This document shows, piece after piece, positions 12,001-63,180 of a DNA stretch of 64,000 nt (its first letter is position 1; each line of letters begins with the position of its first letter). Origin of the DNA: Actinomycetes bacterium (GTDB lineage Bacteria > Auribacterota > JAJCYG01); contig JAJCYG010000058.1 in NCBI GenBank assembly GCA_029263055.1, forward strand, positions 3,587 to 67,586. The letters run 5' to 3'. The position numbers were made by a program, and so were the translations under genes. Under the pieces are notes generated by a model that ran no database searches, was not told the DNA's origin, and saw only the letters and a program-made list of their open reading frames with translations.

Positions 12001-15000
12001 CTCTATCTGGGATTCCTGAAATACCGGTTGCTCCACGTGTTTCATTAATTTTATCTAAAAGCGTTCTAGCTTCAGTTCGAACACGCGTTTCAGCTTCTTC
12101 CATGGTTTCATCATCTTGTTTGTTCACATTAATGACAGGCAATGGGGTTGGTAAATTCTGACTTTGAACAAAAATTTGATAGGCTGCTCGAATTCCTGTT
12201 GGAATGGCACGGTTGATATACAAACCACTTCCAGTTGGATCAACAAAAAGAGTCACATTAAAAACAGTTGAAATAGTAGAGACCACTAATTCGCCATAAA
12301 GGTTTTCTAAATTCTTTTCAGCATCCATGAGTTCAACTAAAGTGCGAAAAGCTCCTACTCGGTTTTCAACCAATTCTCGGCGCAAAATATTACGACCAAA
12401 AATAATTTGATTACCAAGCTCAGCTTCAGTAAAAAGCCCACGATCCCCACTATAACTAGCATCACTCACTTTAGAGTTAGCGGTCGCAACCGTTGTATTA
12501 ATAATACGCATCACTCGTTGAGGATTGGAATTGACTTCATTTGATTTTAAACGGCGCCAACTGCTCCCTTCTCGTACAAAAAAACCAACCAATTGTTTTT
12601 CAGGAACTTCAACGGTATCTCCATTTTCATTCACTTGGCTCAACATATTGAGCTGACCACTTGAATTACGCACATTCATATAAATTTCAGGATAACCATA
12701 TTGGTCCACAACCGGTTCATACATAGGATCACGATCTGAAGCATCACGCATTGAATTTGGTAACCATGACTCAGGGTCGGGTTGAATCTGACGGGTCTCT
12801 GTTCGAAGATCACGCTCTTCATGCACATTGGCCAAGCCACTCATCCGGCCATTTGTCATGGTCACTTCAGCAAAGGCATAGTAATTATGATTTTTTTGAA
12901 AATTAGGAACCAGTGTGGCCATATCCCCTGTTCGAACTCGTTCTTGAAGTTGAGACAAGGACATGCTGCGGGGAATTCCACGGCTAAGGACTTCACGAAT
13001 ATTAAACTCTGACATCCGCTCGGCTCTGTATGCTTGAGCATTACGCAGATTAGCTTGAATCGCATAATCGCCTGACATCACAAGAATTTCTTCATTTAAA
13101 ACAGGATCGTTATACCAGACTTGAAAAGGAATATTGTTTTGACTCATATGCCTCAACTCAGCTGGGTTTGTGATCTGCTCTCCTGCTGCTTCTCGATTAG
13201 GCCGCTCCACCTCAGGATAACGACGATAAACAAATCGGTTTTGAGGAATGCTTGCCATTAAATCAGAGGTTTCTTGAAAACTGTTTGTAATTTGGCGACC
13301 ACCCGGAAGGTTGATGTGGGTCACAGGCTCATAGCGATGTCCCTCTCCCATGCGAACAAGTCGATGAGCCACACGTGATAAATCAGTACGCAATGTTTGA
13401 CGGCGTAACGCCACTTGATAATCTTCTACAGCCAAACGCGCACGATCTTGACGGGCCTTCACACCAAATTCAAAAATAAGACTTTGGTCACTTCCTCTCC
13501 AATCTGTTCTTGCAAAGAAAGCAGGACGGGCTTGTTCTCCCATCACAAAGGTTAATTTTTCTCCTGAGGCAGCTCGGTTTATGGCACCACCAAAACCAAG
13601 TAAATCAAAAATAACATTCCCCTCATTATCATAAACATTTACCTGGCCAGGATTCGTTTGATACCAATTTTGAAAGTCTTGAGGCGAGCTAAAAACCAAC
13701 GTCTCAAATTTATTTGTGACAGTATTAAAACGATAAACCGTACTTTGATACGTTTGCGGAAGAACAGCTGTGGTGATTGGTTGACCATTACGAATATGCG
13801 TCGCAATTTCAGCACGATTGGTAATCACATTACCACGCGCATCTCGAACTTCTAAAATTTCAGCATGATCAAAAAGCCAATCTTCTAGATTGGCCAACGT
13901 GGCAAAAGCCATTGTTTCATATGTGTTGGTTGAAGGATTATAAAAGGTAACCGCGTCTCCATGGGTCCGAGTAGGAACAACCACTGTTTCAGCACCAGCC
14001 ATCACACTTGATTGAGAACGATCCATTAACACACCAAAGTAAGTTGTATTAAGTTGATTAAAGGTCGCACGCATTCGCGTCGAAGCATCCATGGATTGGC
14101 CTAAAAGATCGATTTTTAAACGCTCGGCTGCTTGTAAATCTCCAAGTCCTTCCCGCGTTTCTGTAATCTGCCGAAGCTGATCTCTAACAATGTTATCAAT
14201 ATCAGCTTGAACCGTTGCCGCAATAGGAGGAGCCGTTGTTGGACCCACTTGAGGTTGAACCGGTTGCTGTGGTTGAGCAGGCTGTTGCCCTGGTGGAGTC
14301 TGCTTTGGTCCCACTTCAGGTTTGTCACCAGGTTTATCATCAGGCGCATCTTGCCCCATAGCCATTGGCGCAAAAATACCAACTAAAGCCAAACCTAATA
14401 AGGCTGTACTTAAAACACGAGAGTGAACACTAAAGTAACGAAACATGCCAAAAACGCCACCACTCACACGCCCTTTAGCCATTCCAAAAAAGAATTCTTT
14501 AATACTTCCTAAGAAACCCCACTGCCTCTTTTGAACTTCATGAGAAATTAATGATTTTAAATGACCGTCAAAAAGAGGGTTCTCTTCAACCAGCTTGTTT
14601 AATCGAACCTTTAAGATTTGTTGTTTCGCAGATAACCCGCGAGCAATCGCTCGATCATATTCTTTAAAAATAGTGATGACTTCAGCTTCTAACTTATTAG
14701 CACGCGCTTGTTTTTCTTTTAAATACTCTCCCGCCAAACGAATTACTTTTTCATTCAACGTTTCAAGATCAAAGTTTTCTGCTCGAATAAAAAGAGTTCC
14801 GCCCCATTCGCCCACTCCATTCTCACCAAAACTTAACGTTTCTGCACGTGGGTCTGAGCTTGAAATAATTTGTAATTTGAGCTCTGGATCTTCTGGCAGA
14901 TAAGGCGATTCCATTGCCCAAAAAGGATAGGTTGTCACCATGTCTTGAAGAGATTGCTCACGTACTTCTTTGGCTCGTCTATTAATCTTACGTGTTGCTT

Positions 15001-18000
15001 TTCTCACACGACTTGAAAAACCAGTCACACCTTCTAAGATCGCCATCGGAAACAACACTTGATCTGCAGGTAAAATCGTCTTTTCATCAATTTCAATCGA
15101 CTGCATCAAGTAAGCAAATAACGTTCTTTGTATTTCAACTTCTGAAGCATTTTTTCGAACCAAATCTCTAAGCAGATCCACAAACTCCAAACGCAATGTT
15201 TGAAAATGTTTTTCAATTTTAGCCGCATTAGAATTTTCGGGCGAAACCACAGGGCGCATATAAGCACGCCAAAACTTTTCAATCCCTTCAAAATCACCCA
15301 CACCCTGAGAGAGTTGAATAACCATAATCGCTTCAACACGTTTGTCGGTAAGCTCTTTTCCGGCAATATTATTCTTAATGCGAATTTGATTTAATTGATA
15401 GACAGCCACAACGCGTTGTAAAAAGAGCTTTGCTTCTTGGGCATTTTCTTGATCTGTTTCGTATTGTAGATTGCGCACATAATAGTCGAGAAGGTCTGAA
15501 GCATTTTCTTCACCAAATGGGAGCGTCACATCAAACCAAGGATAAGCTGTTTGCACTTCTTCTACTAAACCTGGATCAACTAAAGAAAGAAGTGTTCGAA
15601 TCGTATCTAAATCATCCAGCTTCTCTGATTCAACAGCTTCATTGTATGTCTTTAAAAAATTGTCTGATTCAAAGATCTCAATATTTTTTCTGGCCTCTTG
15701 GAACATTCCATAAAGAACACCCGCAATATATTGAGCCCGGCTCACAGCTTTACCACGATCACTCTGTGACAAGGTCAAAGCACGCTCTTGGCGCCAACGA
15801 ATAAAACGAATAAATAATCCTGAAAGTCCTACAGCTAAAAGAGCTGAATAATAGATCAAACCAAAATCAGGGGTACCGGTAGCACCCAATGTAAAAGGGA
15901 GCAGGACAAACGCTAATAACGTAGAGGCAAGCTGAACCACAGCAGGCGTCTTCAACGGAGGAAGCTTAGGCAAAGAAGTGCTTCTTGCTCGGCGCAAATC
16001 ACGTTGCGTTTCTGCCACTTCAGTCACTAAGCGCTGAAAAGTGTCATCCCCCTCTTCTCTACCCGACTGAGAAAGACTAATCACATCCCAGTCAATACCA
16101 CGTAAAAAATCGTGAGCAGGCTCTAAATCATTCAGTCCAAATCCATTGACAGAAGCATTCCTTGCTTTTGGCAAATCTGTTTCAATTTTTGATAATGCAT
16201 TATTCCAATCAACCTCTTCTATTGGAGTTAATTTGGGTGCTTCAGGTTGTTTAAATACTTTGGCTATTTTAGCCTGCTTTGCATCTTCTATTCTTTTAAC
16301 AAAGTCAGCTTGATCTGCCAGACGTTGCTCTTCGCGTTCTTTAGCCTGTTCAGCTCGAACATCTTCAGCAATGGCTTCTTTCTTTGCCGTTAATGCTGCA
16401 GCATTTTCTCGACGGGTACGTGCCAATCGGGCCCGGTTTTTTGCTTCCCACTTTAGCTGAGCTAAATTACGCGCCACACTTGCTTCTTCTTTAAGGTCAC
16501 GCTCATTACCGTAAACAAATTGCAAGCCATCAATGGAACGGCTGGCAACCGCACTCTTAAAGGCTTGTTTTCCTTTTGCCACTAAAAGAGCCACTCGTTT
16601 CTCATCTGCAGTTGTAGATTTTGAATGTAGTAGAAAGCCTGCAGGATAGTGAGTGGCTGAGATTTTTCTAAAATAAGCGTCCCAATAACGACGCACTTTG
16701 TAAGGAAGGTTCACACCGGCCTCGTTAATGACGGCGTCTATTTCTAATTGAAGAGCCAGTTCAATGGCTGAAGCATCTTTGCCTTTTTCTTGAAGCAAAT
16801 AAGCTTGATAACCTAAATATTCTAAGATCAATCGCACGGTGTCTGCTTCACGTATCTGTGCACGCACTTCAGGGTTATTTCCTAAGATCACATCTGAAAA
16901 AAGATATGAAGGGGTGGCTAAACGGTTTCCGGTTCCAACTAAGTAGCGTTCTAAAGGAGATAAGCTTGGGGTCATTAACGAAGCATACAAATCTTCGTCC
17001 ATGGCTTCGGTTAAGCGAGGGGCAATCACAAGGTGTGAGGTTTCAATTGCTTCAAGTTGTTGTCTTAAACCATCAGTATGAAAACCACCTGTAATTAAAA
17101 CCGCAATTTTTTTGTTCTGATCTTTTAAAGCTTGTAAGGTATTTTCAATTAAAGCCACATCTCGTTTTTGAGCCACTTCATAAAACCGGTTAGCAGCCTT
17201 AAGAGAACGTGCAATTGATTTATCTTTAATAAACTTGAGAATAGCTGTTTTTTGCTGATTAAACTCTTCGAGTTGGGAGCGGGTCACTTCTAATTGGCTC
17301 ATGGCGTGAACCAGTGCCAACCATTCTGACTCTTGTTGTACTTGCTTTTGCTCATCGGTTATTAAAGTAGCGGCCTTTACTTCTTCAGATAAGGCTTTTA
17401 ATTCAATCATGGCCACTTCAGTACGCAGTTCTTTTTGTAATTCTAAAAATTGAACTAATGTTTCAAGGTGCTGAAAACGGCCATTGATTTTATAAAGATG
17501 AGAGAGACTTAAAAGACGTGAATGATATTCTAATGATTCAATCTTACCCAAACGAAACTCTAACGACATTTTAATAAGCTGCCCAAGGTCTTCTTTAACC
17601 AAACGTTTCTGTAGCTTTTCTAATAAAACATCTCGTTCTCGGGCCACTCCTTTAGGACTAATGGTTTTTTGCATTTCTAAGGCTCTGGCTAAAACATTCA
17701 GTTCAGGATACGCTTGCGCATCTAAAGAGACTTCTAACTCAAGCCACTCTAAGTATTGAACCAAGGAAAGCTCTTGCTCGTAAAGGCGATGTGTTTGGCG
17801 ATCAAAAGCTAAAAACGCTTCAGGCAGCACCATCTCTTTAAGCATTTTATTATCTGCAATCTTTTTGTCTAATACAGGAGCGGACCGTTTACGGGCTTGA
17901 GCCATTTTAAGATGAGCTTGAATATTTTGGTTATACAGGCCCGCTGTTTCCACACCATAAAGCACAGTTGCAGTTGTTCGGTTCATGGCAAAAAACTCAG

Positions 18001-18481
18001 CGGCGTTTACTTTCCCCTCTTTTAAATAAGATAGGGAGACTACTTCTTTAGCTTTCGCATCTGAAAATTGACGAAAGTAACTTGGGTCAACCTTGCCTTG
18101 TGCCCCTTCTAAACAAAGCAACACATCATTGGCATGACCATTAAAGCCCATATCAAAAAGACGATTTAAAATTTTATCAATGTTTTGTTGTGCCGCAAAG
18201 TTGGCATGGGAATCTTGGATATGAATGACATAAGGTTTTGATTGATTTTGATCAGTGCTCGTCGATAAATAAGCTTGCTTGAGTTGACCTAGTTCAGGTG
18301 GAAGGTCAAATCCTTTGAGAGGTTCAAAAAGAGAAATTTCGTTTGTTATAGGGGTTTTGATTGAAGGGCTGAATTGAGTGATTCCTTGTGCTTGGACTGC
18401 TTCTGCATAAAGAAAAGAGAGAGAAATAGCAACGGCTACAACTCGCACCCCAAACCTTTGTCTTCGAACTTCATGAAACAT
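1..18481 (-). CDS. Giant multidomain membrane protein, >6160 aa, 3' end outside window: signal peptide, ChaN/TIKI-like module, (alpha/alpha)6 glycosidase-like domain, YD-like repeats, CBM-like domain, FKS/GT48-like glucan synthase
   Basis: ATG at 18481 with GGAGG RBS, reading MFHEVRRQRFGVRVVAVAISLSFLYAEAVQAQ. The same frame was open in every segment I translated down to position 2 (..LSSMFYLYVIMSFVVSPFTF). It is absent from the ORF track, consistent with no in-frame stop in the window. Motifs: IQDSHANFAAQ (~18210), ITGGFHTDG (~17085), STYDQA (~10750), DVSGYETLSFFVRG (~5430), IEDWANDRLQML (~1850), FFDGD (~1165), FYGHNG (~945), ISEDL (~880). Confidence 0.92.
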   Translation of the reverse strand, partial: MFHEVRRQRFGVRVVAVAISLSFLYAEAVQAQGITQFSPSIKTPITNEISLFEPLKGFDLPPELGQLKQAYLSTSTDQNQSKPYVIHIQDSHANFAAQQNIDKILNRLFDMGFNGHANDVLLCLEGAQGKVDPSYFRQFSDAKAKEVVSLSYLKEGKVNAAEFFAMNRTTATVLYGVETAGLYNQNIQAHLKMAQARKRSAPVLDKKIADNKMLKEMVLPEAFLAFDRQTHRLYEQELSLVQYLEWLELEVSLDAQAYPELNVLARALEMQKTISPKGVARERDVLLEKLQKRLVKEDLGQLIKMSLEFRLGKIESLEYHSRLLSLSHLYKINGRFQHLETLVQFLELQKELRTEVAMIELKALSEEVKAATLITDEQKQVQQESEWLALVHAMSQLEVTRSQLEEFNQQKTAILKFIKDKSIARSLKAANRFYEVAQKRDVALIENTLQALKDQNKKIAVLITGGFHTDGLRQQLEAIETSHLVIAPRLTEAMDEDLYASLMTPSLSPLERYLVGTGNRLATPSYLFSDVILGNNPEVRAQIREADTVRLILEYLGYQAYLLQEKGKDASAIELALQLEIDAVINEAGVNLPYKVRRYWDAYFRKISATHYPAGFLLHSKSTTADEKRVALLVAKGKQAFKSAVASRSIDGLQFVYGNERDLKEEASVARNLAQLKWEAKNRARLARTRRENAAALTAKKEAIAEDVRAEQAKEREEQRLADQADFVKRIEDAKQAKIAKVFKQPEAPKLTPIEEVDWNNALSKIETDLPKARNASVNGFGLNDLEPAHDFLRGIDWDVISLSQSGREEGDDTFQRLVTEVAETQRDLRRARSTSLPKLPPLKTPAVVQLASTLLAFVLLPFTLGATGTPDFGLIYYSALLAVGLSGLFIRFIRWRQERALTLSQSDRGKAVSRAQYIAGVLYGMFQEARKNIEIFESDNFLKTYNEAVESEKLDDLDTIRTLLSLVDPGLVEEVQTAYPWFDVTLPFGEENASDLLDYYVRNLQYETDQENAQEAKLFLQRVVAVYQLNQIRIKNNIAGKELTDKRVEAIMVIQLSQGVGDFEGIEKFWRAYMRPVVSPENSNAAKIEKHFQTLRLEFVDLLRDLVRKNASEVEIQRTLFAYLMQSIEIDEKTILPADQVLFPMAILEGVTGFSSRVRKATRKINRRAKEVREQSLQDMVTTYPFWAMESPYLPEDPELKLQIISSSDPRAETLSFGENGVGEWGGTLFIRAENFDLETLNEKVIRLAGEYLKEKQARANKLEAEVITIFKEYDRAIARGLSAKQQILKVRLNKLVEENPLFDGHLKSLISHEVQKRQWGFLGSIKEFFFGMAKGRVSGGVFGMFRYFSVHSRVLSTALLGLALVGIFAPMAMGQDAPDDKPGDKPEVGPKQTPPGQQPAQPQQPVQPQVGPTTAPPIAATVQADIDNIVRDQLRQITETREGLGDLQAAERLKIDLLGQSMDASTRMRATFNQLNTTYFGVLMDRSQSSVMAGAETVVVPTRTHGDAVTFYNPSTNTYETMAFATLANLEDWLFDHAEILEVRDARGNVITNRAEIATHIRNGQPITTAVLPQTYQSTVYRFNTVTNKFETLVFSSPQDFQNWYQTNPGQVNVYDNEGNVIFDLLGFGGAINRAASGEKLTFVMGEQARPAFFARTDWRGSDQSLIFEFGVKARQDRARLAVEDYQVALRRQTLRTDLSRVAHRLVRMGEGHRYEPVTHINLPGGRQITNSFQETSDLMASIPQNRFVYRRYPEVERPNREAAGEQITNPAELRHMSQNNIPFQVWYNDPVLNEEILVMSGDYAIQANLRNAQAYRAERMSEFNIREVLSRGIPRSMSLSQLQERVRTGDMATLVPNFQKNHNYYAFAEVTMTNGRMSGLANVHEERDLRTETRQIQPDPESWLPNSMRDASDRDPMYEPVVDQYGYPEIYMNVRNSSGQLNMLSQVNENGDTVEVPEKQLVGFFVREGSSWRRLKSNEVNSNPQRVMRIINTTVATANSKVSDASYSGDRGLFTEAELGNQIIFGRNILRRELVENRVGAFRTLVELMDAEKNLENLYGELVVSTISTVFNVTLFVDPTGSGLYINRAIPTGIRAAYQIFVQSQNLPTPLPVINVNKQDDETMEEAETRVRTEARTLLDKINETRGATGISGIPDRVLSTINLSMTPTDAQEIHQFIYAMAAAVYEKEFTGYDSNNNPRTTVTQDELDQVVVTLFHTDWHRHREVTARIDFFSSLMVNLVLLSNTSNDSNFKLARLRPDGSGGQAGEFARDTSSFSDLISKFFVGDIGGDSVMPTPTTAGFLYLTSFARVFREVSTTKGVFESMPLPIGIGPSLASIIKSASRLVPGLDRPVYREAPDVWQAGAWVVNLFGFPLQIFGSIRDNTTYVEGLRNYGVLARTDSSQGLFEQLGRTFVGGNVVSIRTKQQANVLDRQKVLLGYAHIPIPESDRDARQQTESHSMVPVYGIMGDNGIEFIWVPGLKALQENLHDIQEKIDNYDAYHRLMGRNGGAILQVTPGRYYRFDPTNGVGVNPLQMGTFLRATRNGANDLVPSFMFAPNQAGPQTANWQAWGSTYDQAIRSMFFQSLNDGHMGNRVMESIYRLRGGLKRNEVSTDETSNPLYANAINVGTNDIAERQFHVGPNAFIGLAYMQSMFQRHPNILRSYQENYQSGDNLANLRSNIYSGDIDDYMDQLGPDWINDLEDVRDERNRLLWDAENGNLDDLMTNTNAAHALSEMRNIADGLIQRMETEDENWQGVIWQDKANGVSSTEEMMGAFRLFSNMHTVTEESKYRDAALSVLRFLSNKMWDADEHYFYAGTNKRNGIIVANEGYATDVQAIALTAIGPEILEHMRDSKNENKLFFGGGPYLGAKILRRLMDPATGAFVSVLHNGQSVTGFDSTNREGRVAIGNGTERTRAVFVESSSYVLLAMRAYEGYLMNVVANDTRLSASDRAAARDSWSSSWRRSADTLEASIQRLAVRSSSGGMAMPIATTTGIRYYSFSDKRVLDAPASVASTAMFGMAQRHYNPYQIDGQFWYTSRLTSGNPSTLYNGYPAAVREVPSWSQTNQVSLGSRAAVEVEMGKGKIFVNETSDRPSEDVQAILTALTRVTGWNGMTPAQQALPQNQHLRPTTAEVALAQGKTFLFYDQRINAFSYEQGGQVYTWTLISSYDEIDQSVASYRLQGQRAAVEAQVAERGAIRFVSSTGQPLDIRGNALNSTSTSMQHVILGRPLIDDPANPGTKIPDMSGANAMLDFLVAQFERVDANGNPVFSAHEQHRILARGWFETDVPFVQQDGTVHNVRTRIIIEHGLSGALEQVALERADAGTLSNILRLQQMHHLSGVIMTDQNGKLVPNGLVVGELFGLNLGEMKVTEVMNWLRTDPLKMAEAIRNQYANIEYVQSNGTTVYVTLVFGDGMAQQYRTRLEQRLEELNQFNRDLEFVEANLRRGPPYWHSERMNRYWLDANPANRRDAATGDVIVNKANIFNPTLVTQEYLRDNRVVRQVDTNKKIDIYYHPSHGLTHPLYVRSNDTATPQGRTLIVPTGVDRNGALVYSSVDNVTQTFYVTNNGNTKWTFDWMTGRVTQETLNAEGDVLVRLTGTFNRSGFDTTQNFDYSQAAVQTALQVEIQEREELQYIDLTLNSRTVRVSTGGVVYINVDSTTGARTATSQVKMRTEVVTDRDQLFRWGVDMNTWDLNSRQGWSAIEVTSITGAKSLQLLDALGHVVREYSRETETIYVYDSALQLSRPTIVIDRTGRRGTTRNGHDHVLIVYSGTTVATNGNITSTGLDNAGLTVVEVRNSLGYLKSRQVGDLTTTYVIRNGFEIPEETRSAQLNRVVSTYRFNYDAANHRLSVTEINELNRTAKTDIRDTRLDRVVEVNTGSINASDVIRYQSRTAVTYNTQGRETGRTTFIDVDPANASGGIRFETSTATFLPNGEMVLQIRNVLTQKQSTRKLNSLGRLIEESDTYTTLVYEYNSQLGISLPVYKQDRLRARGTRVNGVDNVIATYSHRVLSDGSIEITERSTVGRATKIEVRTRGMLLQRVYRNEVVVHYDGSPAERPLYETGAQGHSILLTQQNGLNRLFPMQMDGTRIRVNAQGQIQYQGNTSGATTVNNVVSVFAQSYLPNGRIQVIQSEVQSRDLRGLPLKISVYDAYGRLIQVQSKTYSSLPNQQNQYTLIETRTTVNQYGNTENPFQITNAVTTTDDPAYLKAHPDGIISTAVTTAGQTESTTQVRQEVTDAQSNTRRVLFYDLQQNFDSPVLEMQNGSTVHNELGDRVFRLRNQGVYQFVGGRPATKLLQPMVRSLELSDDYAWFRMNLGQTYSYVRPLKPAQDITHYDVSGYETLSFFVRGNTGNERFAITFTDKSGHVNRATHITDPYTISELPEAGRDSEGRAWHRVTVSLSDLAANHNVDTSHLIQIGIRYGNGVGNATGDEVRFSNVMLQGATSSLPVIAISGEFSGAGDYELVQSHLTDGYEVGNFFTEETLPPEVAGREGRFSYLKDSRGAIVGTTDFLFEDAYGTKHFRVWRFQGGEHINYDEAIRSDGQRYRVYVFADVSSDKFQTTWKGRTYFNSLNIPRFLVYENDNPELGHKGGQVRRLYQGVRQEDGGLILWEKDMEDGTERVFRFNADGTSSEYSLDSYPLPIPWDEYQASVQNDLDELADNWEKYDRPWDQSISPKQETSILDWIGYLIAGVIAALGALFSLLAKTSKPKEEPAQRVIPDERIRPEDVTKATLIPEMERWVREIGLGDNEVEGMTLFFKNDAWVRWNRNGYEENGEKKVLIDILGGQKPVLLQRYVVRFAIMRFLGHFGSTQMAEYLTDEAMLFTAAIDEEKRVLLGERAALTNEEILAFADKSAVFAKKLLAYRNVFYMMMQTQSIIPKVMAGDKAASLLRRNVFMPEDVSILFRYFRDRNKKQLELEEQGLDPDKIKELVSDIGIDPKDLNLDPNSIEQYSLRLDRNLAEEIAVLIEPIQIAHPDVRGIVELIFEIRRPNLDSKRIKKMIGEIKSLNPDMNEDAVKGIQKEIEGAIAKGSKLPRYAIVNELVHSIQAALGKADVAFNPNLKPRTVKASARFPQLIKGLKFIGERVPLANWIVYTRTILLDFNKTLLPLSKTGNFFIVALGSVAAVIALGVFAFPVISSLLLGMVAGLGLNLLVRLALSARVKGETSAAGLLFWISSIAIWVLWNFGVAMPVWLAGVVPYLELIYQDSMVSVISGAILFGVSALLAYFFLILSYFASTWTLGGLVSAFGIMDLSERQARIKTTERPSILKIGVTFLALSLVVVGLAYVSTIWGLSQSLTTSGILGLVWQYGQYTLYAYGAILFGGFALNRFTKAGALNEMWSMLKEEFSDDPDKLKRVEWEYNSLIKDMYTSYKLTSEEKDKLLNSDDAIKAQALVDIVNKEARDRIKFWANAHLRKNKLPDRPKWENLPSLTLLIPSIDNFRHSWTALNMIDGSSGESRLFKLVTGGYRGEFSNLLDQAEENGWATPAQMSLLNGYMERPYGVSLPPFEGESEEEKAQALILTRKIEDWANDRLQMLETTYTGFLRVKQAYMEAAMFDFLPGETSLDQLTREQKKMVEAKAKEKFQILWSVGGASLNSFFKKPLDQDPNLPNPHGGRQWDFAADLWTNMQEALNLIGKSELIDEVKQQWVENGILTEDGFAGSAFNKEIQAEAIEIRLRDVWDSLIKKLEKQIDEEALNRFEQHITRAQLGHVLVHDINFAWVYGSMDLGEGAGKRGGSVKAKALAVAMPYVRGDTVMFFDGDTEIRLEDGRKLLQVLDRFNKDPKLGVLQFRQYIFNEPYNRQTRVATEAVNSFWGGLLRLKSKVGAVGFYGHNGIFRTKLLMDYDGIQPSHISEDLLGYATIIANGGHGGYEDRLQFGEGEETLLSMYATPPAKWAQGAARGELQASRAFELLMASPHVSFAYKFDLLFNLAFYGIVHYFSIPAIITFIVGALVIGANPFTVLPSYMIIAGWGMSQAIGIFSLAQFWERNGYFDGTLKWLKFLFLEGGFFYWTTLIANQSEGLRKGLKEAGAWVTAAKDQGTESYTWETLTGIFGLGLLVSLPLFALLPLAPLSPYLLIAPALVLLSVFLWHVTGRKVPFEVIAVLIWAVPTVLSLMFFNTGGGVVLSSMFYLYVIMSFVVSPFTF

Positions 18482-18533
18482 CTGTACACCCTCCAAAGTC
18501 TCTCGGATTTCTCAAGTTGCACCTGCTCTGATG

Positions 18534-18562
18534 AAAAAACCGAACTGCTGTAGGCAGCTCGG
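18534..18562 (-). terminator. Intrinsic terminator (riboswitch expression platform)
   Basis: Minus strand CCGAGCUGC-CUACA-GCAGUUCGG-UUUUUU. The 5' arm is the 3' strand of the aptamer. Confidence 0.85.
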
Positions 18563-18636
18563 CTATCCTAAAAACCTTAACAAGGATCCGTTGCTTTGCG
18601 TCCCAGAGTTACCTCTGGTTTGCCACTTTCTACTTA
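18549..18636 (-). ncRNA. c-di-GMP-I (GEMM-I) riboswitch aptamer
   Basis: GUAG..GGCAAACCAGAG-GUAA-CUCUGGGACGCAAAGCAACGGAUCCU..AGGAUAGCCGAGCUGCCUAC matches the GEMM consensus (GGCAAA, GNRA loop, GGGACGCAAAGC, GCCGRGYUGCC). It lies in the 5' leader of the 18481 ORF. Confidence 0.93.
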
Positions 18637-18782: not shown

Positions 18783-21700
18783 CTATATAGCGGTGTCAAA
18801 GGCTCTATCTGATTGAACCTGAGTGAGTTGTGAGAAGCCTTCTTCTTCTACTAGAGTGGCAAAACGATCTCTCATGGAAGAAATTTGACCTTGAGTCACA
18901 GAGCTAAGAATCAACATAGGCAAAACAAAGTCATTCTTAGGTTTAATCTCATCTGGAAGTTTGATTGCAGCCACACCCGCACCGACATCACTTAATTCAG
19001 ACCGGTAAAGCACATGAATCAAGTGGTGGTAAAGAGCAGGATCTTGACGGGAAAGCTGTTTTAATAGTGTTTCAGCCCGAGGCATGGTATCAAGCAACTC
19101 TTGATAACCCCGCACAAAGCGTTCAAATAGAGGCTGATAACGGGTAAATTGAAGCAGTTCTCGATATTGCTGACGTAATTTTTTCAACTCTTCTCTTTTA
19201 AATTCATCTGACAAAATCTCAACAACTCTAGAAGCCCCTTTTGAATAAGAAATGTCATCTTTGCCAATGCCAAAATCTGAATAAGCATGATGAATCACAA
19301 TTTCTTCTCCCTTTTTAGGAATACGCGCCCCTAATTCACGGTCTAAATAAATACCGGTTAAATTATAAATTTTCTCAACTAATCGAAGGCGCTCAGTTTC
19401 AAGTTTGGTGTAGATTTTAGCAGGATCAAAAATTTCACGCGAAGAAACCTCTTCTAAGAATGCAGCCACACCACCAAGAGAGCCTTCTTCTTTACCTGCC
19501 ATCAGAGCTCGTAGCACTTTTGCTGCTTCTTTCATACTACTTGAGTCTGTTTTAAAGCCTAACTTGTCATCAATCTCTTTCTTCACACCTAAATCATGAG
19601 CCACACGGTTAAAACGTTCTAATTCACTTTCTCGTTCCAACATCGAAGTTAAAACATAAAAGAGTTCGTTATAATTTAAGCGTCCTGTCTCTTTATATAA
19701 TTTAAGCTCTCGCTTCCATTTCTCTGCTTTCTCTAACAAATCTCTACGAGAAATTTCAAGTTCTGAGTTAACCGCTAATTCAACTTGAATGGTTTCTGAC
19801 TTGGCCTCAATATTTCCGTTATAGACTAAAAAGAAATCGCCACCTGACATAAACTTATCATCGCCAAGTGATTTAAAATCAACGTCACTAAAGCTTGGAT
19901 CAATTTCCGTTAACTGGCCTTGAAACTCTGAAACCAACTGTTTTCGAATTCTAGCCAATGTTTCCGGACGTGTGTTTTTAGCCGCGCCCCCTTTTTTGCG
20001 CCAAACATGATCGAGTTTATCTGCATTTTGTTTGATCACACTCTCCATTAACACGCGGTAGGCGCGCTCCATGTTTTCGAAAAGCTTTCCTGCCTTGCGC
20101 TCATCTCCACGTGGGATCATTTTTCTTTGATCTGAATCTTTAACAGATAAAACCGAAGTTAAAAAATTTAGTTTGATTCGTGGGTCAAGTTGACCACGTA
20201 TAGGCTCTTCATTAGCCCCTTTTTCTCGCACGTCTGTAGAACGAAACACTTTACCTCTCACGTTAGCAAGGATAGAGCGAACCGCTCCTTTTAACACCTT
20301 AATCTCTTCAGACTCATTTAAACCATTCCCTGTTTCTACAGGCATCCAAAGATAAATAGAATCTGGGGGCCCTCTAAAAGTAAAAATCGGGGCGTTCCAA
20401 CCATGAAAAAATTCGTCTCCTCTTTGACGTTCGGCTAATTCTCTGTTTAATTTTTCAACTTGCTCCCACACATAAGTTAAAATCGCAGAAATCACATCAT
20501 CGGTTCCGCCATGAGTTAAAACTTCATTAAGAAACTTTGTGTTCACTCCCATCAATTGTGGACTAATCACACGAAACTTCTTAAACATCTCTTCTCGTAC
20601 TTTTTGACGAATAAAAGTCGCATCTTCTTCATCTTCTTCATCTAAGTCATAATTGTCTTTAAGAATTTGCCCACGCATTTCTTCTTCGTATTTAAGAACT
20701 TCAGCTTTAATCGTATCACTTATATAGCCAATATCAATTTGAACCAAATAACCTGAAGTTCTTACATTGGTAATCGTATTCTGAATCGCCGACTTTTTAT
20801 TGGGCATACGAAAAAAACGACCATCTTGCTGACCAAAAACAAGGCTAGAGCCTCTTGTTTGTGCTTGGGCCAGTATATAGTCTTCGTTATTTAAGACTTC
20901 TAACTTTTCGTCATTACGATGTCTGTTTTGATTTAAGGGATCGGCATCTGGATGAAGTAAGGCCACAGCATCTTTACCACTTTCAGATAAAGTTTGCGAA
21001 GCAATTTCATTACGCAAGACCCACTGCTCTAAAATATTTGGCGCGGTTCGTTTTACACTCCCATTCATATCTCTTAAGGTTTCTTTAAAAGAAGAGGCCA
21101 CACCAGTCAATGTTGAAGAATCTAAAACACCGGCATAATAAGCATGAGGTTTAAAGTCAACAAAGTGTTCTGGATATTCTTGCTGTACCTCAAAAAAAGT
21201 TTGATCTAAGTCATCTTCATTTTCATAAACCAAGAAATATTGCTCTGAGTGTTGAACCACGTTCACTCCTTTTTCTCGAAGCAACCGTAATATTCCGGGG
21301 TTATTATTTTGAACTTCTTCTTCATAATACTCTCCTTCAAAAAGGAGACGGCGCACTTCATCATCTTTAGGGTTTTCTTTACCCATTGTTTTAATACGAG
21401 AATCCCCATCTAACTGCAAAACACCTAATTGATATTTTCCTTTGATTAGACGGCGCAGATAAGTTTGAATTTGAAACATGACTTGTTCAACCACTTCAGG
21501 ATCAGATGTGGGTAAAACAACAACTCTCTCATCGCCACCATTCACATAACTAAATCCGCTATAAGCTTTATTTCCTATTTGGCGAACCACATTATTTAAA
21601 ATACGTTGCATGGCATTGTCAAAATCAGCTAAAAAAACATCCATAATTTCATTGGTATAAATCCAATTACGAAGTTTTAAATTGTTCACATCAATAAAGA

Positions 21701-22040
21701 TCAAATAAAAATCATCTAATTCGCCAGAAGGATCCATTCCAAGACGAATCAACTCACGCGCTTTTTCTTCTCCTGTCGTAATATCATATGCTGTTCGAAC
21801 CGATTTTCCTTTTAAGAGATCATCGTAAAAACTGTCAGGAACAGATAATTGATCGGCAAGCGAAGGAAGAAACATATCTTGTAAAGATTCTTGTTGGGCA
21901 ACAGCAGGCAAATCAGAAAAGGGCGCAAGAAAGCTGTTTTGCTTAATAGAACTTGCTGGCAAGCTCCAAGAAAGTAAAACAGCTAAACATAGGCTAAAAA
22001 GCCTATATAAAGAGATGTGTTTTGTTGAGTCCCGTTTCAT
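18783..22040 (-). CDS. Signal-peptide-bearing protein with two GGDEF-like domains (putative diguanylate cyclase-like), 1085 aa
   Basis: N-terminal hydrophobic stretch LFSLCLAVLLSWSLPA. Domain 1: FYLIFIDVNNLKLRN..MDVFL..NGGDERVVVLP. Degenerate domain 2: LVQIDIG..TKFLNEVLTHGGTDDVI..FRGPPDSIYLWMP. GAGG RBS upstream. Confidence 0.8.
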   Translation of the reverse strand: MKRDSTKHISLYRLFSLCLAVLLSWSLPASSIKQNSFLAPFSDLPAVAQQESLQDMFLPSLADQLSVPDSFYDDLLKGKSVRTAYDITTGEEKARELIRLGMDPSGELDDFYLIFIDVNNLKLRNWIYTNEIMDVFLADFDNAMQRILNNVVRQIGNKAYSGFSYVNGGDERVVVLPTSDPEVVEQVMFQIQTYLRRLIKGKYQLGVLQLDGDSRIKTMGKENPKDDEVRRLLFEGEYYEEEVQNNNPGILRLLREKGVNVVQHSEQYFLVYENEDDLDQTFFEVQQEYPEHFVDFKPHAYYAGVLDSSTLTGVASSFKETLRDMNGSVKRTAPNILEQWVLRNEIASQTLSESGKDAVALLHPDADPLNQNRHRNDEKLEVLNNEDYILAQAQTRGSSLVFGQQDGRFFRMPNKKSAIQNTITNVRTSGYLVQIDIGYISDTIKAEVLKYEEEMRGQILKDNYDLDEEDEEDATFIRQKVREEMFKKFRVISPQLMGVNTKFLNEVLTHGGTDDVISAILTYVWEQVEKLNRELAERQRGDEFFHGWNAPIFTFRGPPDSIYLWMPVETGNGLNESEEIKVLKGAVRSILANVRGKVFRSTDVREKGANEEPIRGQLDPRIKLNFLTSVLSVKDSDQRKMIPRGDERKAGKLFENMERAYRVLMESVIKQNADKLDHVWRKKGGAAKNTRPETLARIRKQLVSEFQGQLTEIDPSFSDVDFKSLGDDKFMSGGDFFLVYNGNIEAKSETIQVELAVNSELEISRRDLLEKAEKWKRELKLYKETGRLNYNELFYVLTSMLERESELERFNRVAHDLGVKKEIDDKLGFKTDSSSMKEAAKVLRALMAGKEEGSLGGVAAFLEEVSSREIFDPAKIYTKLETERLRLVEKIYNLTGIYLDRELGARIPKKGEEIVIHHAYSDFGIGKDDISYSKGASRVVEILSDEFKREELKKLRQQYRELLQFTRYQPLFERFVRGYQELLDTMPRAETLLKQLSRQDPALYHHLIHVLYRSELSDVGAGVAAIKLPDEIKPKNDFVLPMLILSSVTQGQISSMRDRFATLVEEEGFSQLTQVQSDRAFDTAI

Positions 22041-22076: not shown

Positions 22077-22104
22077 AATATACATGATTTTCAGGATTTG
22101 TCAA
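22077..22104 (-). promoter_or_regulatory. Possible sigma70-type promoter of the GGDEF-like gene
   Basis: CCTTGACAAA as in the other two promoters, then 16 bp and TATATT. Confidence 0.5.
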
Positions 22105-22126: not shown

Positions 22127-25100
22127 CTAAATAGCGTGGTCAAAAGGGTCTACAAGAGGAATTAAAGGTAGATTAGTTTCAGCGTCGGGGCTATTTTTAT
22201 CGACGATAAAAAGAACTTTTGGGGCGATTGAAAAGACCTGTAATTGGCGCACTGCAGGATGTTCCCAGTTTCTATCCAAATATTGCCTTAGTCGAAGGGG
22301 TGAAACAGAATCAGCCACAACCACGTAATTGGCCAAATCTTTTTGATAAGCTGAAAGCTGGGCCCACTTTGAAAGAGGAATCCAAATCAGAGACGCCTCT
22401 TCTTTTTCAGACAACAAGCGGGCAAAATCTGTTGTCACATCTGCGATTTGAGCACTTCCATCAAAAGCGTCTCTCAATATCTCTTCAAGATCGGAATCAA
22501 AAATCACGTTCCATTCAGGTGAAGGAACAAGAGACTGGTAATTACGCTGAGTTTGACGCATTTCAAGTTCTAACTCAATAGCGTACGGAATGAGTGCCAC
22601 TCTTGCTTGATATTCTTTCCAGTCAATATTCAGTAAATAGTTCATGCCATGTTCAGGATCAGAATCCCATACAACCATAAACTGTCCCCATTTCTCTCTT
22701 ATTCTTCCCCATTGCGTGGCCTCTTCTGAAACAAAAAAGTCGAGTGATGAACCTAAGATGGAAGTAACTTGATTCACTTGATCTGGATCTTGAACTAATT
22801 GATCAAGCTGCTCCACCACTTCTTTTAAAAATTCAGAAAAACGTTCTTGAGGCACCCAATCTTTCCAATCTTGAGGAGGAACAATCGATTTTTTAACTTG
22901 ATTGAGTCTAGACTCAAAGCGGAACATTTCTTTTAAATACTCATTAGTCCCGGTTTGGCGGTATTGCTCCCAGGCCTCGTCATCTTTGCGCGAAAGTGCG
23001 GACTTCAATTGTTGGAGCGCGACTTTCATGGCAGTTAAAACCATATCTCGGTCATTCCTTGAATCATTCAAAAGTTTTTCTACTGAATCAACGTAAGGAA
23101 AGCGAGTGTCTGGAAAATAACGTGTGATCAAAAATTGAATTTTGCTCCATTCTAAATGGAGAAGAAAGTGGTCAAGAAAATCAGCATCTTGGTAAAGAAA
23201 CTGATACTGAATACGGAAAAGAACTTCTTGGGCTTGCACCCAATCCTTATCTTGTAGTTGAAAACTCTGGCGCAAACCATTTTTAGCAGACACAGCTTCT
23301 AGGTCGAGAGAATCGTCTAGATCAGATTGAGCCAAAACCGAAGTCCACTGTAACAATTCTATTTGGTCTAATTGAGTGGGAACCCACAAAACATCCATAT
23401 TCAAATCAAGAGTGGGTTCGGGCAAAGAGACCACACCCAAACTTAAGGAACCATCATCAGGGGCTGCTTGGGTTAGCAACCTCTCTTGCTCACTTAACTG
23501 CCCAAACAGCGGGGAATCTATATCAACAGGTGATCGAATACCATCGCGATTATTAGCTTGAATAACCCAACTGACAAGGGTTTTAGCGCGGCTCACATCC
23601 GCTGCTTCAAAAAGAGACCCTTCAATCGTTTGATGCTCTTGAAAATAAAGCAACAACTCATGTGCTTTTTTCAAGGCTAAGAACTCGGTATAATGCGTGC
23701 TAATTTGTTTCATTATACCCATAGTCGAACTATCTAGGTGACGCTTACGAACCAGCTTTGGAACCACACTCGTCAAAAACTCATAAATAGAAGCAATGCT
23801 TTGTCCATCTTCTTGGAGCAAGTTAATACCACTACGAAAAAGTTCTAACTGATTAAGGAAAAGCCCTTTTTGGCCCAACTCATTAGCCAGTTGCCCTGAA
23901 AATTCATCAAACGCATTACGGATGGTAAAAAAATCTAACGGAACAAGTAGCTCCCTCTGATCCAGTTTCTTTTGAAGGGCTCGAATGCGACGAACCTCCC
24001 CTGTTATTTCCATGCGACGCTCATATCTTGCTTCATAAGTATAGACCAAATAGTTTAAGAGATTTTTTTGTTCGACAATTAAGCCCTCTCTTTCAGTCAT
24101 CTCTCCTCTAGAGTTATCTTGAACATAACTCTCAACAGCAGCAACCAAGGGAACACTTATTTGAGTTTGAATGCCTTCTCTTAATTTTAATTCTCTCTTA
24201 ACAATCATCATTTCAGAAAGAATCGCAATTTGTTCACCAAGAACAGTCTCACTTATAGGCTCAAACTCGAGCAAGATCAACTTTAGTTCTAATAAAACCT
24301 CTCTTGAAACATCTTCTGTTAAACTCTGGTTTAACACATCCTTAAAAAGAGTCTCTTCATCCCAATCCCAATTAGGTTCAAAAGGGTCTTCGGCTAAATC
24401 AATATAAGGCAGAGAAAAATCATCAAGAAGAGTGGGTGAGTTTGGATCGCCATTTAATCGACTCTGGACCAAAGATAACAGTTGGCCCACTAAAGGCTCT
24501 ATCTTTCTTTTTTGAGTCCGCTCTTTATGCTTTGCACTGATTCTTTGCTCAAATTCAAGAAAATAAGCTTCCATTTCAGGCACATCTAAAAAGCCAAGTT
24601 CTCGCACAGCTTTAGCTGCTATCTGGGCCTCTGTCGCATCATCAGCAAGCTCTTTACGCCCTTTTTCTCTCTCTTTTTTAATTAAGGCATCTACCTCTGC
24701 CCGTTTATCGATAAAAGTTACCTCAGAAGCATTAACGTCCCACTCGTCCATTATAGCGGCAAACTTGGCTTCAAACTTTTTAGACGGATAAGAATTAAGC
24801 ACTTCTTTTTCATAAAGCGACTCAGCTAACTGGGCCCGATCATAAAGCTCAATAAATTCACGTCTTAACTCAACAAAACGCTCTGCTCGCTTCGAATAGT
24901 CCTGAATTTCATCCAGTTTTGATAACTGCTGCAGTAAAAGAAGTATCTTCCAATCAAAGAGAGAAACTTTTTCTTCTAAATCTTGTTCTTGATTCATTGT
25001 TAAACTATCAAACGCATCATCAAATGAGGCATCAGAATCACTACTTAATGTTGTCACCTCTAGTTTAAGACGACTGAGTCGACCCGTATCTTGGTGCATT

Positions 25101-28100
25101 TTTCCCTTACCCGAAAGACCCCTTAAAATAAGTCGCGCTTTTTCTTCAACCGTTTCAGCCGTTGCTTCTTGATCAAAAAGACTATTTAGTTCATCACTAT
25201 ACTGCGACCAATTTCCTTGAGTCTGTTGCGACAAAACCAAATCAAAGTAATCTAGTCGAGCTTGAGGAAACTGTTTTCGTTTTCCTTTTGATTGAATATT
25301 GGCTAATCGAGCTTGAATAAAATCTTCGCTAATCGCCTTTTTATCTTCATATTGCGCTTCTAACCAAACTCTTTTTTGTTCTAATTCTTCTTGGGTTAAA
25401 GAAACCGTAACCCCATAAGTCTCTGCAGCTTCTCTATACTCTCTTTTTAAGGCGGCTACTTTTTCTCGAAGGACTTTGACCTGATCAGGCTCAATTGCTG
25501 GAGTCAATTCATCAACAATATGCTGAAACCGAGTGGCTGTCAGAACGGGTTCCCACACAAAATCAAAAAAGCTCGTTGTTGCAAGTGTCTTTTGGTGAAA
25601 AGCAACATCGCCTGTTTCCTCTAGATAAGCTTCTTGTACTTCTTCCATTTGCTTAATAATTTGTTGAATACGCGCTTCTTTTGAAGGGCGACCTAATCGA
25701 ACCCGCAAAACACCTAAGCTGGTCACTTCTGTTTCGTAGTCGAGAAGAGAGCGGTAATATTTATAACCTTCTGGTATTTGACTTAAAATATGGGGGATAC
25801 TAAATGCGGTAAAATTTAATTCTGGATCACGGATATTTTCTGTTGAAGGCTTGGAACTTTTAAGTAACGCATAATAAAGATAACCGGTAATCACTCGAGA
25901 AAAACCAAATTCTTTTCTTCTCACACCGGCCATTCCATTCTGAATACCAAATCGACCAAACTCCCGATCAATCATAAATGGAACAATATTAAAAAGAGCT
26001 TTCATTAGTTTTTCTAAAACATCTTGCTCTTGTTCAGCATCTAACTCATCTAAAGTGAGTCCTGAAAAAGCAACACTGTTGTCATGAATAATGGCTGCTA
26101 AATCAATTAGTTTTTCTCCTCGAGCCAAACCATCTTCATGTGTTTGGGTCCATTCATCATAAATTTTGTTCCAAATTAAACTCACATGATGTTCCCATTT
26201 GGCATATGAAATGCGATCTGCTTCTGGAACATTTTCATCAAAGAAAAGTCTGTCCATTTCTGCCACTTCATTGATTAATTCTTTTAAGTTTTTTTCTGTA
26301 GAATCGCCTTCCTGAGAAGAAAAAGTGAGTGTTTGTTCTTTTAAGACATCTTGTAAGGCAGATTCAAAACGGCCTAGAAGCGCTGTTAACAAAAGAGGAT
26401 CTATCTCATGGGCCAAAGAGACCAATCTTTTTTCTGTTTCAGCATCAAACTTATCTTCTGGTTTCACTTTTGGATGAGACTGATTCCCTAACACCTGAGA
26501 AAGAGCACTCATTAGAGACCCATATTCATCAAGTAGACCCTCTTCTTCTAACCACATTAAAAGAGGCGCACCAGAGGCTTCTGCAATCTTCTCAGATAAA
26601 CGCTTTTTTAAAAATGTAAGATCAGACTCTAAATCAGAAGATTGTTTGACCACATTTTCAAAAAGGCCTGACCACACTCCAGAAAGCTCTTGTTCTTCTT
26701 GCTCGATCCACGGATACGCACGACTCCTTAATTCATAAAAAGAATTTCGAACGAGAATCGCTTCGCTATATTTAATACCAGAAACCAATGTTGCTTTTTT
26801 CTTTTGCCATTGAAACCAAGCTTTTCGCTCATCAATTTTGATCTTAAGTTTATTTAAGAACGAAAGGTAATTGGCTTGAAGGGTTAATTCATTTGACTCC
26901 CCTTTTGTTAGTCGAGCATGTTTTTCAATCCAAGCCGTAAGACCCTTTACCCTCTTTTCAACTTCATGAAGTTCTGTTTCAACTTCAATCTTTTCAATGC
27001 CTTTACCTAATCGGTCAATTTGAGGAACTGTTTTTGGCAAATAATGACGTAAGGCTAAATATAAAGTACTACGTAACATGATATAAAAGTCTTTGTACGG
27101 AGCCTTCTTTTTTTCAGTTAAGTTTGACAATAATTCAACAAATTCACCTAATTCTTGAACCTCTTGTCGAGAAACTCTCCCTTTTTCCTTATCATCAAGA
27201 AACTTTTTCTGAAGAGCTTCTAAATCAAACGTTCCAGCAAACGCTTCCCACTTCACTAAAATAGTAGAGGCTGAAGTTACGTCATCATTTAGAAAATCTT
27301 CTAAATCACGAATTAAAAGACCCAGTCCTTCGTACTCGGGATTTTGTTCTGAGAGGGTTGAATAAATTTTTTGAGCAAGAGTAAGAGCCTCTTGATATTC
27401 GAGCAATATTATTTTGTGTGTGACCACACTCAATGAAGAGGTAAGGTCAAGAACGTCTTCAGGTTCAAACTGATCTTGCAACCGAACCGCATCTTCTTCT
27501 GCAGCACGAAAACGCTTAGCAAAGTCTCGCTCTAAAGTACGAGTACGCCCATGATCAGGCGCTGTTTCATTTTTTCTTTGACGGCGAGCGATAATTTCTT
27601 GAAGGTCTGTATTTGAATCACTAGTACTGGCTGATACTGTTGGAGGTGGATCAGCAATAGCCTCTAAGAGCGGCGCCTGATCAACAGGCTTATCAGCCAC
27701 AGCATCAGGAAGTGGAGAGGCTTCAGCAGGAGCAATCGTTTCAGCGATAACAGGCTCAACAAAAGCCTCTGACTCAGCGCTAACGGGTTCAGAAAGTACA
27801 GGCTCTTCTGTTGGGAGTAATAAAAAGGGTTGAGAGGTTGCAGGCTCAGCCGTTGGAGTAGAACCAAAATAAGGGACCCAGCTTGGCACCCAGCTCCGAT
27901 CAGAAACCACTAAATGGGGTGCGACTTTAAATGAGACGCCCGTTTTATCATCATCAGGAAGCTTTCGTCGAACGTGATCCGCATCTTGTTGGCGGGCTTG
28001 GGCTTGTTGTAAAACAAATTCTAAAGAACCGGTTGCAATTCCCGCTTCAATTTCAGCGTGAGTTAAGGGATCATGAATTCCATCACTCGAAAGAAAAAGA

Positions 28101-33004: not shown

Positions 33005-33031
33005 ATTCACGTCCACATCACACAAAAAAGT

Positions 33032-62977: not shown

Positions 62978-63022
62978 AAAAAAATAGCCAAGTTGCATGC
63001 TTGATTAAAACTGCAACTCGGC
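62978..63022 (-). terminator. Intrinsic terminator (riboswitch expression platform)
   Basis: Minus strand GCCGAGUUGCA-loop-UGCAACUUGGC-UAUUUUUUU, overlapping the aptamer 3' strand. Confidence 0.8.
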
Positions 63023-63180
63023 CAACTCTCACAAAAACAATTTCAGTCATACTCACATCACAACTAGTGGGAGTTCTCCCACTACAACAATATAAGTACA
63101 ACTGGTGACACCGAAGTGTCGATTTTAAGAGTCCCGTAGCTTTGCGCCCCACAATTGCTTGAGGTTTGCCCTGTCTTAAA
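63005..63180 (-). ncRNA. c-di-GMP-I (GEMM-I) riboswitch with ~95-nt insertion in the second stem
   Basis: P1 UUAAGAC/GUUUUAA; AGGGCAAACCUCAA-GCAA-UUGUGGGGCGCAAAGCUACGGGACUCU..[insert]..AGAGUUGGCCGAGUUGC. It lies in the 5' leader of the 9.9-kaa ORF. Confidence 0.85.

Follow-up and report, generated by a model that had tools for sequence, protein, structure and literature searches.

A leader-bearing protein with two predicted GGDEF folds, encoded among giant genes and c-di-GMP-I riboswitches in an Auribacterota genome, as a candidate exported nucleotide-binding pair

The DNA analyzed in this study (the window) is a stretch of 64,000 nucleotides from contig JAJCYG010000058.1 (C58; positions 3,587 to 67,586) of GenBank assembly GCA_029263055.1, a 2.95-Mb genome of the phylum Auribacterota which comprises 124 contigs and is 96.8% complete; the sequencing runs found to contain this locus were made from the DNA of biofilm metagenomes in a single study, no RNA run is listed among them, and one of them is possibly the source. 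The gene of interest occupies positions 18783..22040 of the minus strand, on which all window features described below are located, and encodes P0001, a protein of 1085 amino acids which belongs to an orphan family of seven proteins. A preliminary description, made from the sequence without database searches, had noted GGDEF-like domains directly behind a signal peptide at positions 20300-22040, corresponding to residues 1-580 of this open reading frame (ORF). A ribosome-binding site (AGAGG) is located 8 nt upstream of the P0001 ATG, and within a row of four same-strand genes that of P0001 comes third, being preceded by genes encoding proteins of 9956 (33128-62998) and 3639 (22127-33046) amino acids and followed by a gene (2-18496) whose product reaches more than 7360 amino acids on the full contig. 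P0001 lies between two riboswitches of the cyclic di-GMP-I (c-di-GMP-I) class.

The region spanning residues ~80-367 of P0001 (20940..21803), here termed domain 1, harbors the motif D117-V-N119..K122..N125..D134 followed by G168-G-D-E-R172, and its predicted structure adopts a GGDEF fold. Comparison of domain 1 with solved GGDEF domains returned Z scores of 16.9-14.7 and root mean square deviations (rmsd) of 2.2-4.2 Å over 149-167 aligned residues, which amounted to 167 of the 172 residues of 7a7e_A (Z 16.9, rmsd 3.1 Å), 152/153 of 4urq_V, and 159/161 of 4iob; GGDEF proteins accounted for all 50 entries among the matches listed, the list being a re-alignment of the top 1000 Foldseek hits. Foldseek with the P0001 model gave a best E value of 2.5e-3, and the rows listed were mostly GGDEF structures. 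The intact-looking GGDER domain with its DxN..K..N residues, as previously claimed, is, therefore, substantiated by both motif and fold. In the AlphaFold2 model of P0001 (seven-row alignment; mean predicted local distance difference test [pLDDT] score, 65.4; predicted template modeling [pTM] score, 0.53), domain 1 is additionally interrupted by an alpha/beta subdomain of ~120 residues, which is inserted at positions ~211-330.

A residue map of domain 1, obtained by alignment to a profile of the six canonical GGDEF domains encoded by the same genome, places PleD residues D327, K332, N335, D344, E370, and E371 at D117, K122, N125, D134, D170, and E171, respectively, all six of which are invariant in 6/6 aligned family members at 31-50% identity. 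In PleD, according to passages of PMC7288161, D327, N335, and D344 are essential, two Mg ions are held by E370, D327, and the I328 backbone, and phosphates are bound by K442 and R446; domain 1 has the same metal, base, and catalytic residues as PleD. The second Asp of the canonical DxD is replaced by Asn119, and N120, R124, W126, and Y128 represent family-specific invariants inside the motif, which suggests a site that is maintained and altered rather than decaying. The position of the Phe in GG[DE]EF is occupied by R, R, K, N, R, and R across the family, such that the full signature is not present, and one member reads GADER; the Arg found two residues before the GG is kept in only 1/6 members. 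The RxxD I-site is absent from domain 1 in the alignment to the canonical profile, and a conserved G355-K-D may, judging by motif spacing, stand for the GRN phosphate-binding turn. Domain 1 is accordingly read, from its sequence, as a complete but remodeled guanine-nucleotide and metal site.

Residues 405-650 (20091..20828) constitute domain 2, a degenerate GGDEF-fold domain with N500-T-K502, N505, H510, D514, and R556-G-P-P-D560-S. When this domain was modeled alone from a six-row alignment (pLDDT 76.2, pTM 0.73), an unbiased structural search of 48,161 chains placed GGDEF structures at all of ranks 1-32 (Z 10.4-8.5, 118-132 residues), the row following the GGDEF entries being a viral polymerase at Z 7.5. 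Foldseek agrees weakly (best E value, 8.3e-3), and among 2033 ORFs of the genome the best non-self match of the domain 2 profile was a canonical GGDEF protein, one of the seven GGDEF-bearing ORFs (E 0.0097). The GGDEF fold on which the preliminary description depended was thus found in both domains, including the second, degenerate copy which it had recognized by GPPDS. In the model of domain 2, the first strand is followed by an inserted helical hairpin.

In its signature, R556-G-P-P-D-S561, Pro-Pro replaces Gly-Gly, and N500, T501, K502, N505, H510, R556, P558, P559, D560, and S561 are invariant in 6/6 members. PleD K332, N335, and E370 correspond to K502, N505, and D560 of domain 2, all invariant, and D344 corresponds to D514 (conserved in 5/6), while E371 corresponds to the invariant S561, with loss of the acidic residue. 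The equivalent of PleD D327 would be D436 (Asn in 1/6) if the modeled first strand is right, and a hydrophobic residue by sequence alignment. Equivalents of essential residues in domain 2 are, therefore, limited to N505, D514 (5/6), and D560, and the domain is read as a partial site in which base- and phosphate-binding residues are kept, whereas the turn formed by Gly-Gly is lost, as is the second of the acidic residues.

These altered signatures bring into consideration a doubtful, though by no means negligible, alternative, namely, that P0001 is a pseudoenzyme whose two GGDEF folds are retained for nucleotide sensing or for purely structural purposes in an assembly, exported or at the surface, that also comprises the giant neighbors, and that no synthesis takes place. 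Such a role would agree with GGDER in place of GGDEF and the missing Pfam call in P0001, with the PPDS of domain 2, and with the expectation that GTP is not supplied outside the cell; it is at variance with the invariance in domain 1 of all reported catalytic essentials at 31-50% identity, which is unusual for a dead site, and with the lack of an RxxD I-site for c-di-GMP binding. GGDEF domains of LapD and FimX are among the structural matches, and, as stated in passages of PMC7288161, some degenerate GGDEF domains are known to act as sensors.

The remainder of the protein (residues 651-1079; 18804..20090) is mostly helical in the AlphaFold2 model, matches none of the families of Pfam or NCBIfam at threshold, and had no usable match in a protein atlas. 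An exhaustive phmmer search of 1.84 billion representative proteins recovered six relatives of P0001, all at E < 1e-30 and each a singleton cluster, resulting in the seven-member family. No relatives were found in 40 related genomes (0/40) or in 78 other genomes of the phylum (0/78), nor did a profile search of the genome's ORFs return a paralogue. In scans for the relatives' neighborhoods, 0 of 124 pattern matches in a genome-contig collection and 0 of 433 in a metagenome-contig collection were confirmed. Searches of PDB sequences returned nothing better than E 0.06, and NCBIfam and PADLOC provided no meaningful match.

P0001 commences with an export-type leader (residues 1-31; 21948..22040) in which a basic n-region (K2, R3, K7, and R13), an h-region of 14 residues, and a c-region with PASS can be read from the sequence. 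Kyte-Doolittle analysis with a 19-residue window identified a single segment scoring at least 1.3, from residue 14, and none elsewhere, which agrees with the earlier reading of an apparent export signal with no further obvious transmembrane segment; a hydrophobic N-terminal peak was present in 6/6 family members with an intact N terminus. Shortly after the leader lies a pentapeptide box, L38-A-P-F-S42 (21915..21929), with the consensus L-[AS]-P-x-[ST], and the protein terminates in R-A-F-D-T-A-I (18786..18803), a tail whose last residues follow the consensus hydrophobic-[ED]-x-[AS]-[IL]. The box follows the hydrophobic segment in 6/6 family members with an N terminus, and a tail of the form [FVA]-[DE]-x-A-[IL] is found in 5/5 members with an intact C terminus. 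The box resembles a lipobox without the Cys; signal peptidase I could be blocked by the invariant Pro of the box if cleavage were to fall directly before it.

The box and tail are not confined to the P0001 family, the tail taking the form [AS]-[ILV] at the C terminus in the genome-wide set. Among the 1902 genome ORFs of at least 150 amino acids, 80 were found to carry both elements; the box alone was present in 53, the tail alone in 78, and neither element in 1691 (odds ratio, 33; Fisher P value, 2e-60). In 76 of the 80 doubly tagged ORFs, the box is preceded by a hydrophobic 12-mer. The 80 proteins account for 75,228 of 842,203 residues (~9%) and have a median length of 716 amino acids, compared to 338 for all ORFs. 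A Pfam scan covered the 20 largest of the 80 after removal of one of 7493 amino acids and of P0001. It revealed mutually unrelated payloads which include ATP-, CoA-, and NAD-type enzymes: a methylmalonyl-CoA mutase with B12 and carboxyltransferase domains; an acyl-CoA synthetase with acyl-CoA dehydrogenase and MaoC domains; two PPDK ATP-binding domains; an ABC1 kinase; a superfamily-1 helicase; GAPDH, Zn-ADH, and PGM plus PGI domains; and WD40 and HEAT arrays. No Pfam family was present in 7/20. The presence of a cytoplasmic-type domain behind an export-type signal is consequently a property of this class and not a peculiarity of P0001, and, since the tag occurs on ~80 ORFs, many of them encoding cytoplasm-type enzymes, the question of location belongs to the class as a whole.

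The charge distribution of the P0001 leader and the length of its h-region agree with export of most of the polypeptide rather than with a cytoplasmic orientation. One destination, which the preliminary description had also raised and which represents a special case of the exported-cargo proposal set out below, would be another cell, P0001 being a delivered effector that draws on the GTP of the recipient to make c-di-GMP or a related nucleotide. Such delivery is favored by the export-type leader and tags, by an active-looking site devoid of a sensor domain, and by the tagged kinases, helicase, and metabolic enzymes, which need a cytoplasm-like milieu, and related giant-protein loci of Omnitrophota are ascribed to predation in sections of bioRxiv 10.1101/2023.11.21.568195. 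We nonetheless consider it improbable, as doubly tagged proteins make up ~9% of the residues of the ORF set, which is large for an effector set, and as no injection machinery was seen in the window, although no search was aimed at any.

Both riboswitches invoked in the preliminary description do exist. Aptamer 1 (18549..18633), which precedes gene 2-18496, scores 65.5 bits against RF03167 (cut-off, 59) and 64.8 bits against RF01051 (cut-off, 35), and has a promoter-like site of its own at 18672-18644. It overlaps an intrinsic terminator (18538..18564) of 11 pairs and a T-run, whose 5' arm is formed by the 3' strand of the aptamer, an ON-switch design; the hairpin (-17.2 kcal/mol) is present in the ligand-free minimum-energy fold. 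Aptamer 2 (63008..63179), a weaker copy with an insert of ~90 nt in P2, precedes the gene of the 9956-amino-acid protein which heads the P0001 row. Its scores fall below both gathering scores (39 bits and E 1.3e-5 with RF03167; 34.6 against a cut-off of 35 with RF01051), and it is associated with a terminator-like hairpin of the same design. From these predicted structures, both riboswitches would act as ON switches, with ligand-dependent read-through. Two further copies, at C45:101302-101389 and C32:26870-26951, bring the total in the genome to four. The C45 copy lies directly before a gene for a tagged protein of 1836 amino acids without a Pfam family (C45:95793-101303), which again ties c-di-GMP control to the tagged class. 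A 14-mer, TATAGGTATATCCA, has exactly two copies in the 2.95-Mb genome (18745-18758 and 63208-63221), each upstream of one of the two riboswitch leaders of the window, and may be a site for a shared regulator.

Clan competition in Rfam labeled all four copies as c-di-GMP-I-GGC, with the RF03167 cut-off being passed by 1/4 only and the canonical model scoring within 1-5 bits of the variant model for all four. At the position after P1a at which the consensus of the GGC model has G, an A is found in 4/4 copies; G before the 'GC' of P1a, 'AA' after P1a, and 'GC' before the 3' strand of P1 are likewise present in 4/4 and canonical. We take G20, A47, and C92 to be the ligand-contacting nucleotides of the c-di-GMP-I aptamer, and the GGC variant to be defined by G instead of A at position 47. 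The neighboring riboswitches, therefore, carry the nucleotides of the canonical c-di-GMP-I type despite their Rfam label. A scenario in which orphan GGC-variant riboswitches depend on P0001 for their ligand was considered and rejected on the grounds of equal canonical scores (64.8 versus 65.5) and the A in 4/4 copies.

The preliminary description had further raised the option that P0001 feeds these riboswitches as an N-anchored intramolecular pseudo-dimer cyclase. The genome encodes six canonical GGDEF matches (plus one weak) and four PilZ matches; EAL matches were not found, and c-di-GMP is presumably broken down by another family, for which no search was made. None of the ORFs with these seven GGDEF matches is tagged, each contains at least one hydrophobic stretch, and in most of them the GGDEF domain lies near the C terminus. 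Six canonical, untagged, membrane-anchored GGDEF proteins can thus supply the riboswitch ligand, and P0001, being encoded downstream of an ON-type riboswitch, looks like an output rather than a source. The option is weakened accordingly, and P0001 is unlikely to be the feeder, given its predicted extracytoplasmic topology and the ordinary cyclases at hand. In this view, the leader would serve as an uncleaved N-terminal anchor for a cytoplasmic cyclase, an intramolecular pseudo-dimer whose product would act on the adjacent riboswitches in positive feedback. The location of the gene between two c-di-GMP-I riboswitches and the intact catalytic residues of domain 1 are in its favor, as is the requirement of many tagged proteins for ATP, CoA, or NAD, by which the tag might not mean export at all. 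We regard it as unlikely all the same, because basic residues before the hydrophobic segment and a net acidic stretch after it suggest that the bulk of the protein is translocated, because an h-region of 14 residues is short for an anchor, and because the canonical GGDEF proteins of the genome are untagged and six of them are already able to supply the ligand.

On the basis of these findings, we tentatively propose, with somewhat less than even confidence, that P0001 belongs to the exported cargo of the tag system, is induced by c-di-GMP, and carries an asymmetric pair of nucleotide-binding GGDEF folds, domain 1 being probably catalytic. The genome-wide tag would consist of two parts, a Sec-type leader with the box L-[AS]-P-x-[ST] and, at the C terminus, the tail hydrophobic-E-x-[AS]-[IL], the payload being the GGDEF-fold pair followed by the helical region. 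Within the pair, domain 1 would represent the catalytic half-site and domain 2 the partner that holds a nucleotide, and together they would bind GTP and probably produce a guanine dinucleotide at a non-cytoplasmic place shared with other tagged proteins. The gene itself would be an output of c-di-GMP within the row of giant genes behind the ON-type c-di-GMP-I riboswitches, whose ligand would be provided by the six ordinary cytoplasmic cyclases. Of this picture, the folds, the motifs and their conservation, the tags, and the identity of the riboswitches are observed, whereas export, catalysis, domain pairing, and co-regulation are inferred.

Several points weigh against this proposal. The assignment of domain 1 by a Pfam GGDEF scan, as envisaged in the preliminary description, failed for P0001 itself (sole match, GGDEF_2 at E 0.24; no PF00990 at E <= 10) but held for the relative P0002, 51% identical, which scores 27.8 bits against PF00990 (cut-off, 23.8) over profile positions 14-108 of 161; a GGDEF Pfam match at E <= 1 was obtained for 4/7 family members. 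Loss of the Phe and of the Arg near the GG may mean that the activity of domain 1 is lost or changed. The models of P0001 and of domain 2 were built on alignments of six or seven sequences. Profiles of domains 1 and 2 show no detectable sequence similarity (hhalign probability, 0.65%), and an internal duplication is, by the same comparison, not supported at the sequence level. GTP is not expected outside the cytoplasm, and the ORF set behind the tag statistics came from a crude first-start-codon call with a minimum of 150 amino acids and overlap filtering. With respect to co-regulation, the 86-nt gap upstream of P0001 contains a promoter-like site, TTGACA-16-TATATT (22077..22104), with 11/12 matches, a consensus match only; seven such sites occur in the scanned region against a shuffle mean of 8.7, which is no excess. 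With a promoter-like site of its own, P0001 need not share a transcript with the riboswitch-controlled upstream gene.

A bolder version of the proposal, to which we give little credence, holds that P0001 is a tagged, asymmetric tandem-GGDEF synthase which acts outside the cytoplasm of the producer, whether inside a recipient cell or in an extracytoplasmic compartment that contains nucleotides, and makes an unusual guanine dinucleotide. The compartment would also house the remaining tagged enzymes that depend on ATP, CoA, and NAD. As only one half-site is complete, the product would be one which an ordinary symmetric cyclase does not release; candidates would be linear pppGpG and a mixed dinucleotide for which domain 2 holds the acceptor.

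The three giant neighbors of P0001 (2-18496, 22127-33046, and 33128-62998) are almost without Pfam content. The 9956-amino-acid protein has a TolC-like OEP match (E 1.2e-8) approximately 5000 residues in, and sub-threshold matches among the neighbors comprise ChaN/Tiki, in the same protein, as well as CBM30, GT2, and glucan synthase; Tiki/TraB (PF01963) matches numbered 0 in the genome. For the 3639-amino-acid protein, no Pfam family was found at E <= 0.01, and PP2C-like 'DGMGG' and metallophosphatase-like 'GD...GNKE' stretches were noted by eye. This protein ends in FDHAI, a tag tail, and that of 9956 amino acids in Ala-Ala. The listed ATG of the 9956-amino-acid ORF falls within the hairpin and U-run that make up the terminator of riboswitch 2 (window positions 62941-62998), and a Met located 19 codons further on, with AAGGGG before it and a leader-like segment after it, is the likelier start.

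Compared to canonical GGDEF cyclases (PleD, WspR, YfiN/TpbB [7a7e/4iob], DosC [4zve], and that of Thermotoga maritima [4urq]), domain 1 has the same fold over nearly the whole domain. It differs from them in having GGDER (or K or N at the last position), an Asn for the second Asp, the additional invariants N120, R124, W126, and Y128, and the ~120-residue insert, and in being without the RxxD I-site, while P0001 as a whole lacks a sensor or dimerizing input domain, carries an export-type leader, and falls below the Pfam threshold. To our knowledge, all characterized GGDEF cyclases are cytoplasmic symmetric dimers. Domain 2 shares with the degenerate GGDEF domains of LapD (3pjx/6pwj), FimX (3hva), and Caulobacter crescentus PdeA the fold (Z ~10), a non-canonical signature, and base and phosphate residues, but is joined to an active-looking GGDEF domain instead of an EAL domain and has the hairpin after strand 1. 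The degenerate GGDEF domains of LapD and FimX serve as sensors or scaffolds. Two palm-type domains in one chain, one of them with the full catalytic signature, also bring to mind the two-palm pseudo-heterodimers of adenylyl cyclase C1/C2, Cas10, and archaeal GTP cyclohydrolase III; such structures appeared as weak matches, namely, 1ab8 (Z 6.5, domain 2) and, at Foldseek probabilities of 0.15-0.60, 2qv6 and Cas10-containing complexes. Domain order and accessory domains differ from those of P0001. A role of the degenerate GGDEF domain of C. crescentus PdeA is described in passages of PMC7288161.

At the level of the locus, the closest parallels concern giant genes. Sections of West-Roberts et al. 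2023 (bioRxiv 10.1101/2023.11.21.568195) describe giant 'Archaeovorin' proteins of Omnitrophota which have signal peptides and contain GGDEF domains, with pilZ genes downstream of giant genes, and portions of 10.64898/2026.06.07.730766 report leader-bearing giant enzymes of Omnitrophota, with 94% of long proteins having a signal peptide or transmembrane helices. Like the Archaeovorin loci, the present one has a GGDEF-type domain beside giant genes with export-type leaders; unlike the Archaeovorins, P0001 is a separate protein of 1085 amino acids, with two GGDEF folds and a seven-member family unconnected to others by phmmer. The word 'riboswitch' occurs 0 times in the 2023 preprint's main text. 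In Bacillus thuringiensis, the c-di-GMP-I riboswitch Bc2 lies upstream of a collagen adhesin gene, with repression in the parent strain, as given in parts of PMC4933901. Here, similarly, a canonical-type aptamer precedes giant, leader-bearing genes, whereas the platform design would predict ligand-dependent read-through rather than repression.

Each of the separate elements has already been known or noted, namely, the GGDEF fold, GGDEF domains that are degenerate, enzymes with leader tags in giant-gene loci, and giant genes under riboswitch control. In the titles and abstract openings covered by our literature search, no exported or tandem GGDEF-GGDEF protein was described, and neither a D-x-N-N-x-K-L-R-N-W plus GGDE[RKN] site nor a PPDS partner or end tags were reported on such a protein. 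The four riboswitches of this genome indicate that the 'GGC variant' label of Rfam can fall on riboswitches with canonical ligand-contact nucleotides. The P0001 family combines an export-type leader with a conserved, altered site and a built-in degenerate partner, and P0001, at 1085 amino acids instead of tens of thousands, would represent a compact, expressible test case. It would bear on the actual site of action of leader-tagged 'cytoplasmic' enzymes in Omnitrophota-like bacteria, and on the possibility that a different nucleotide is made by a one-sided GGDEF pair.

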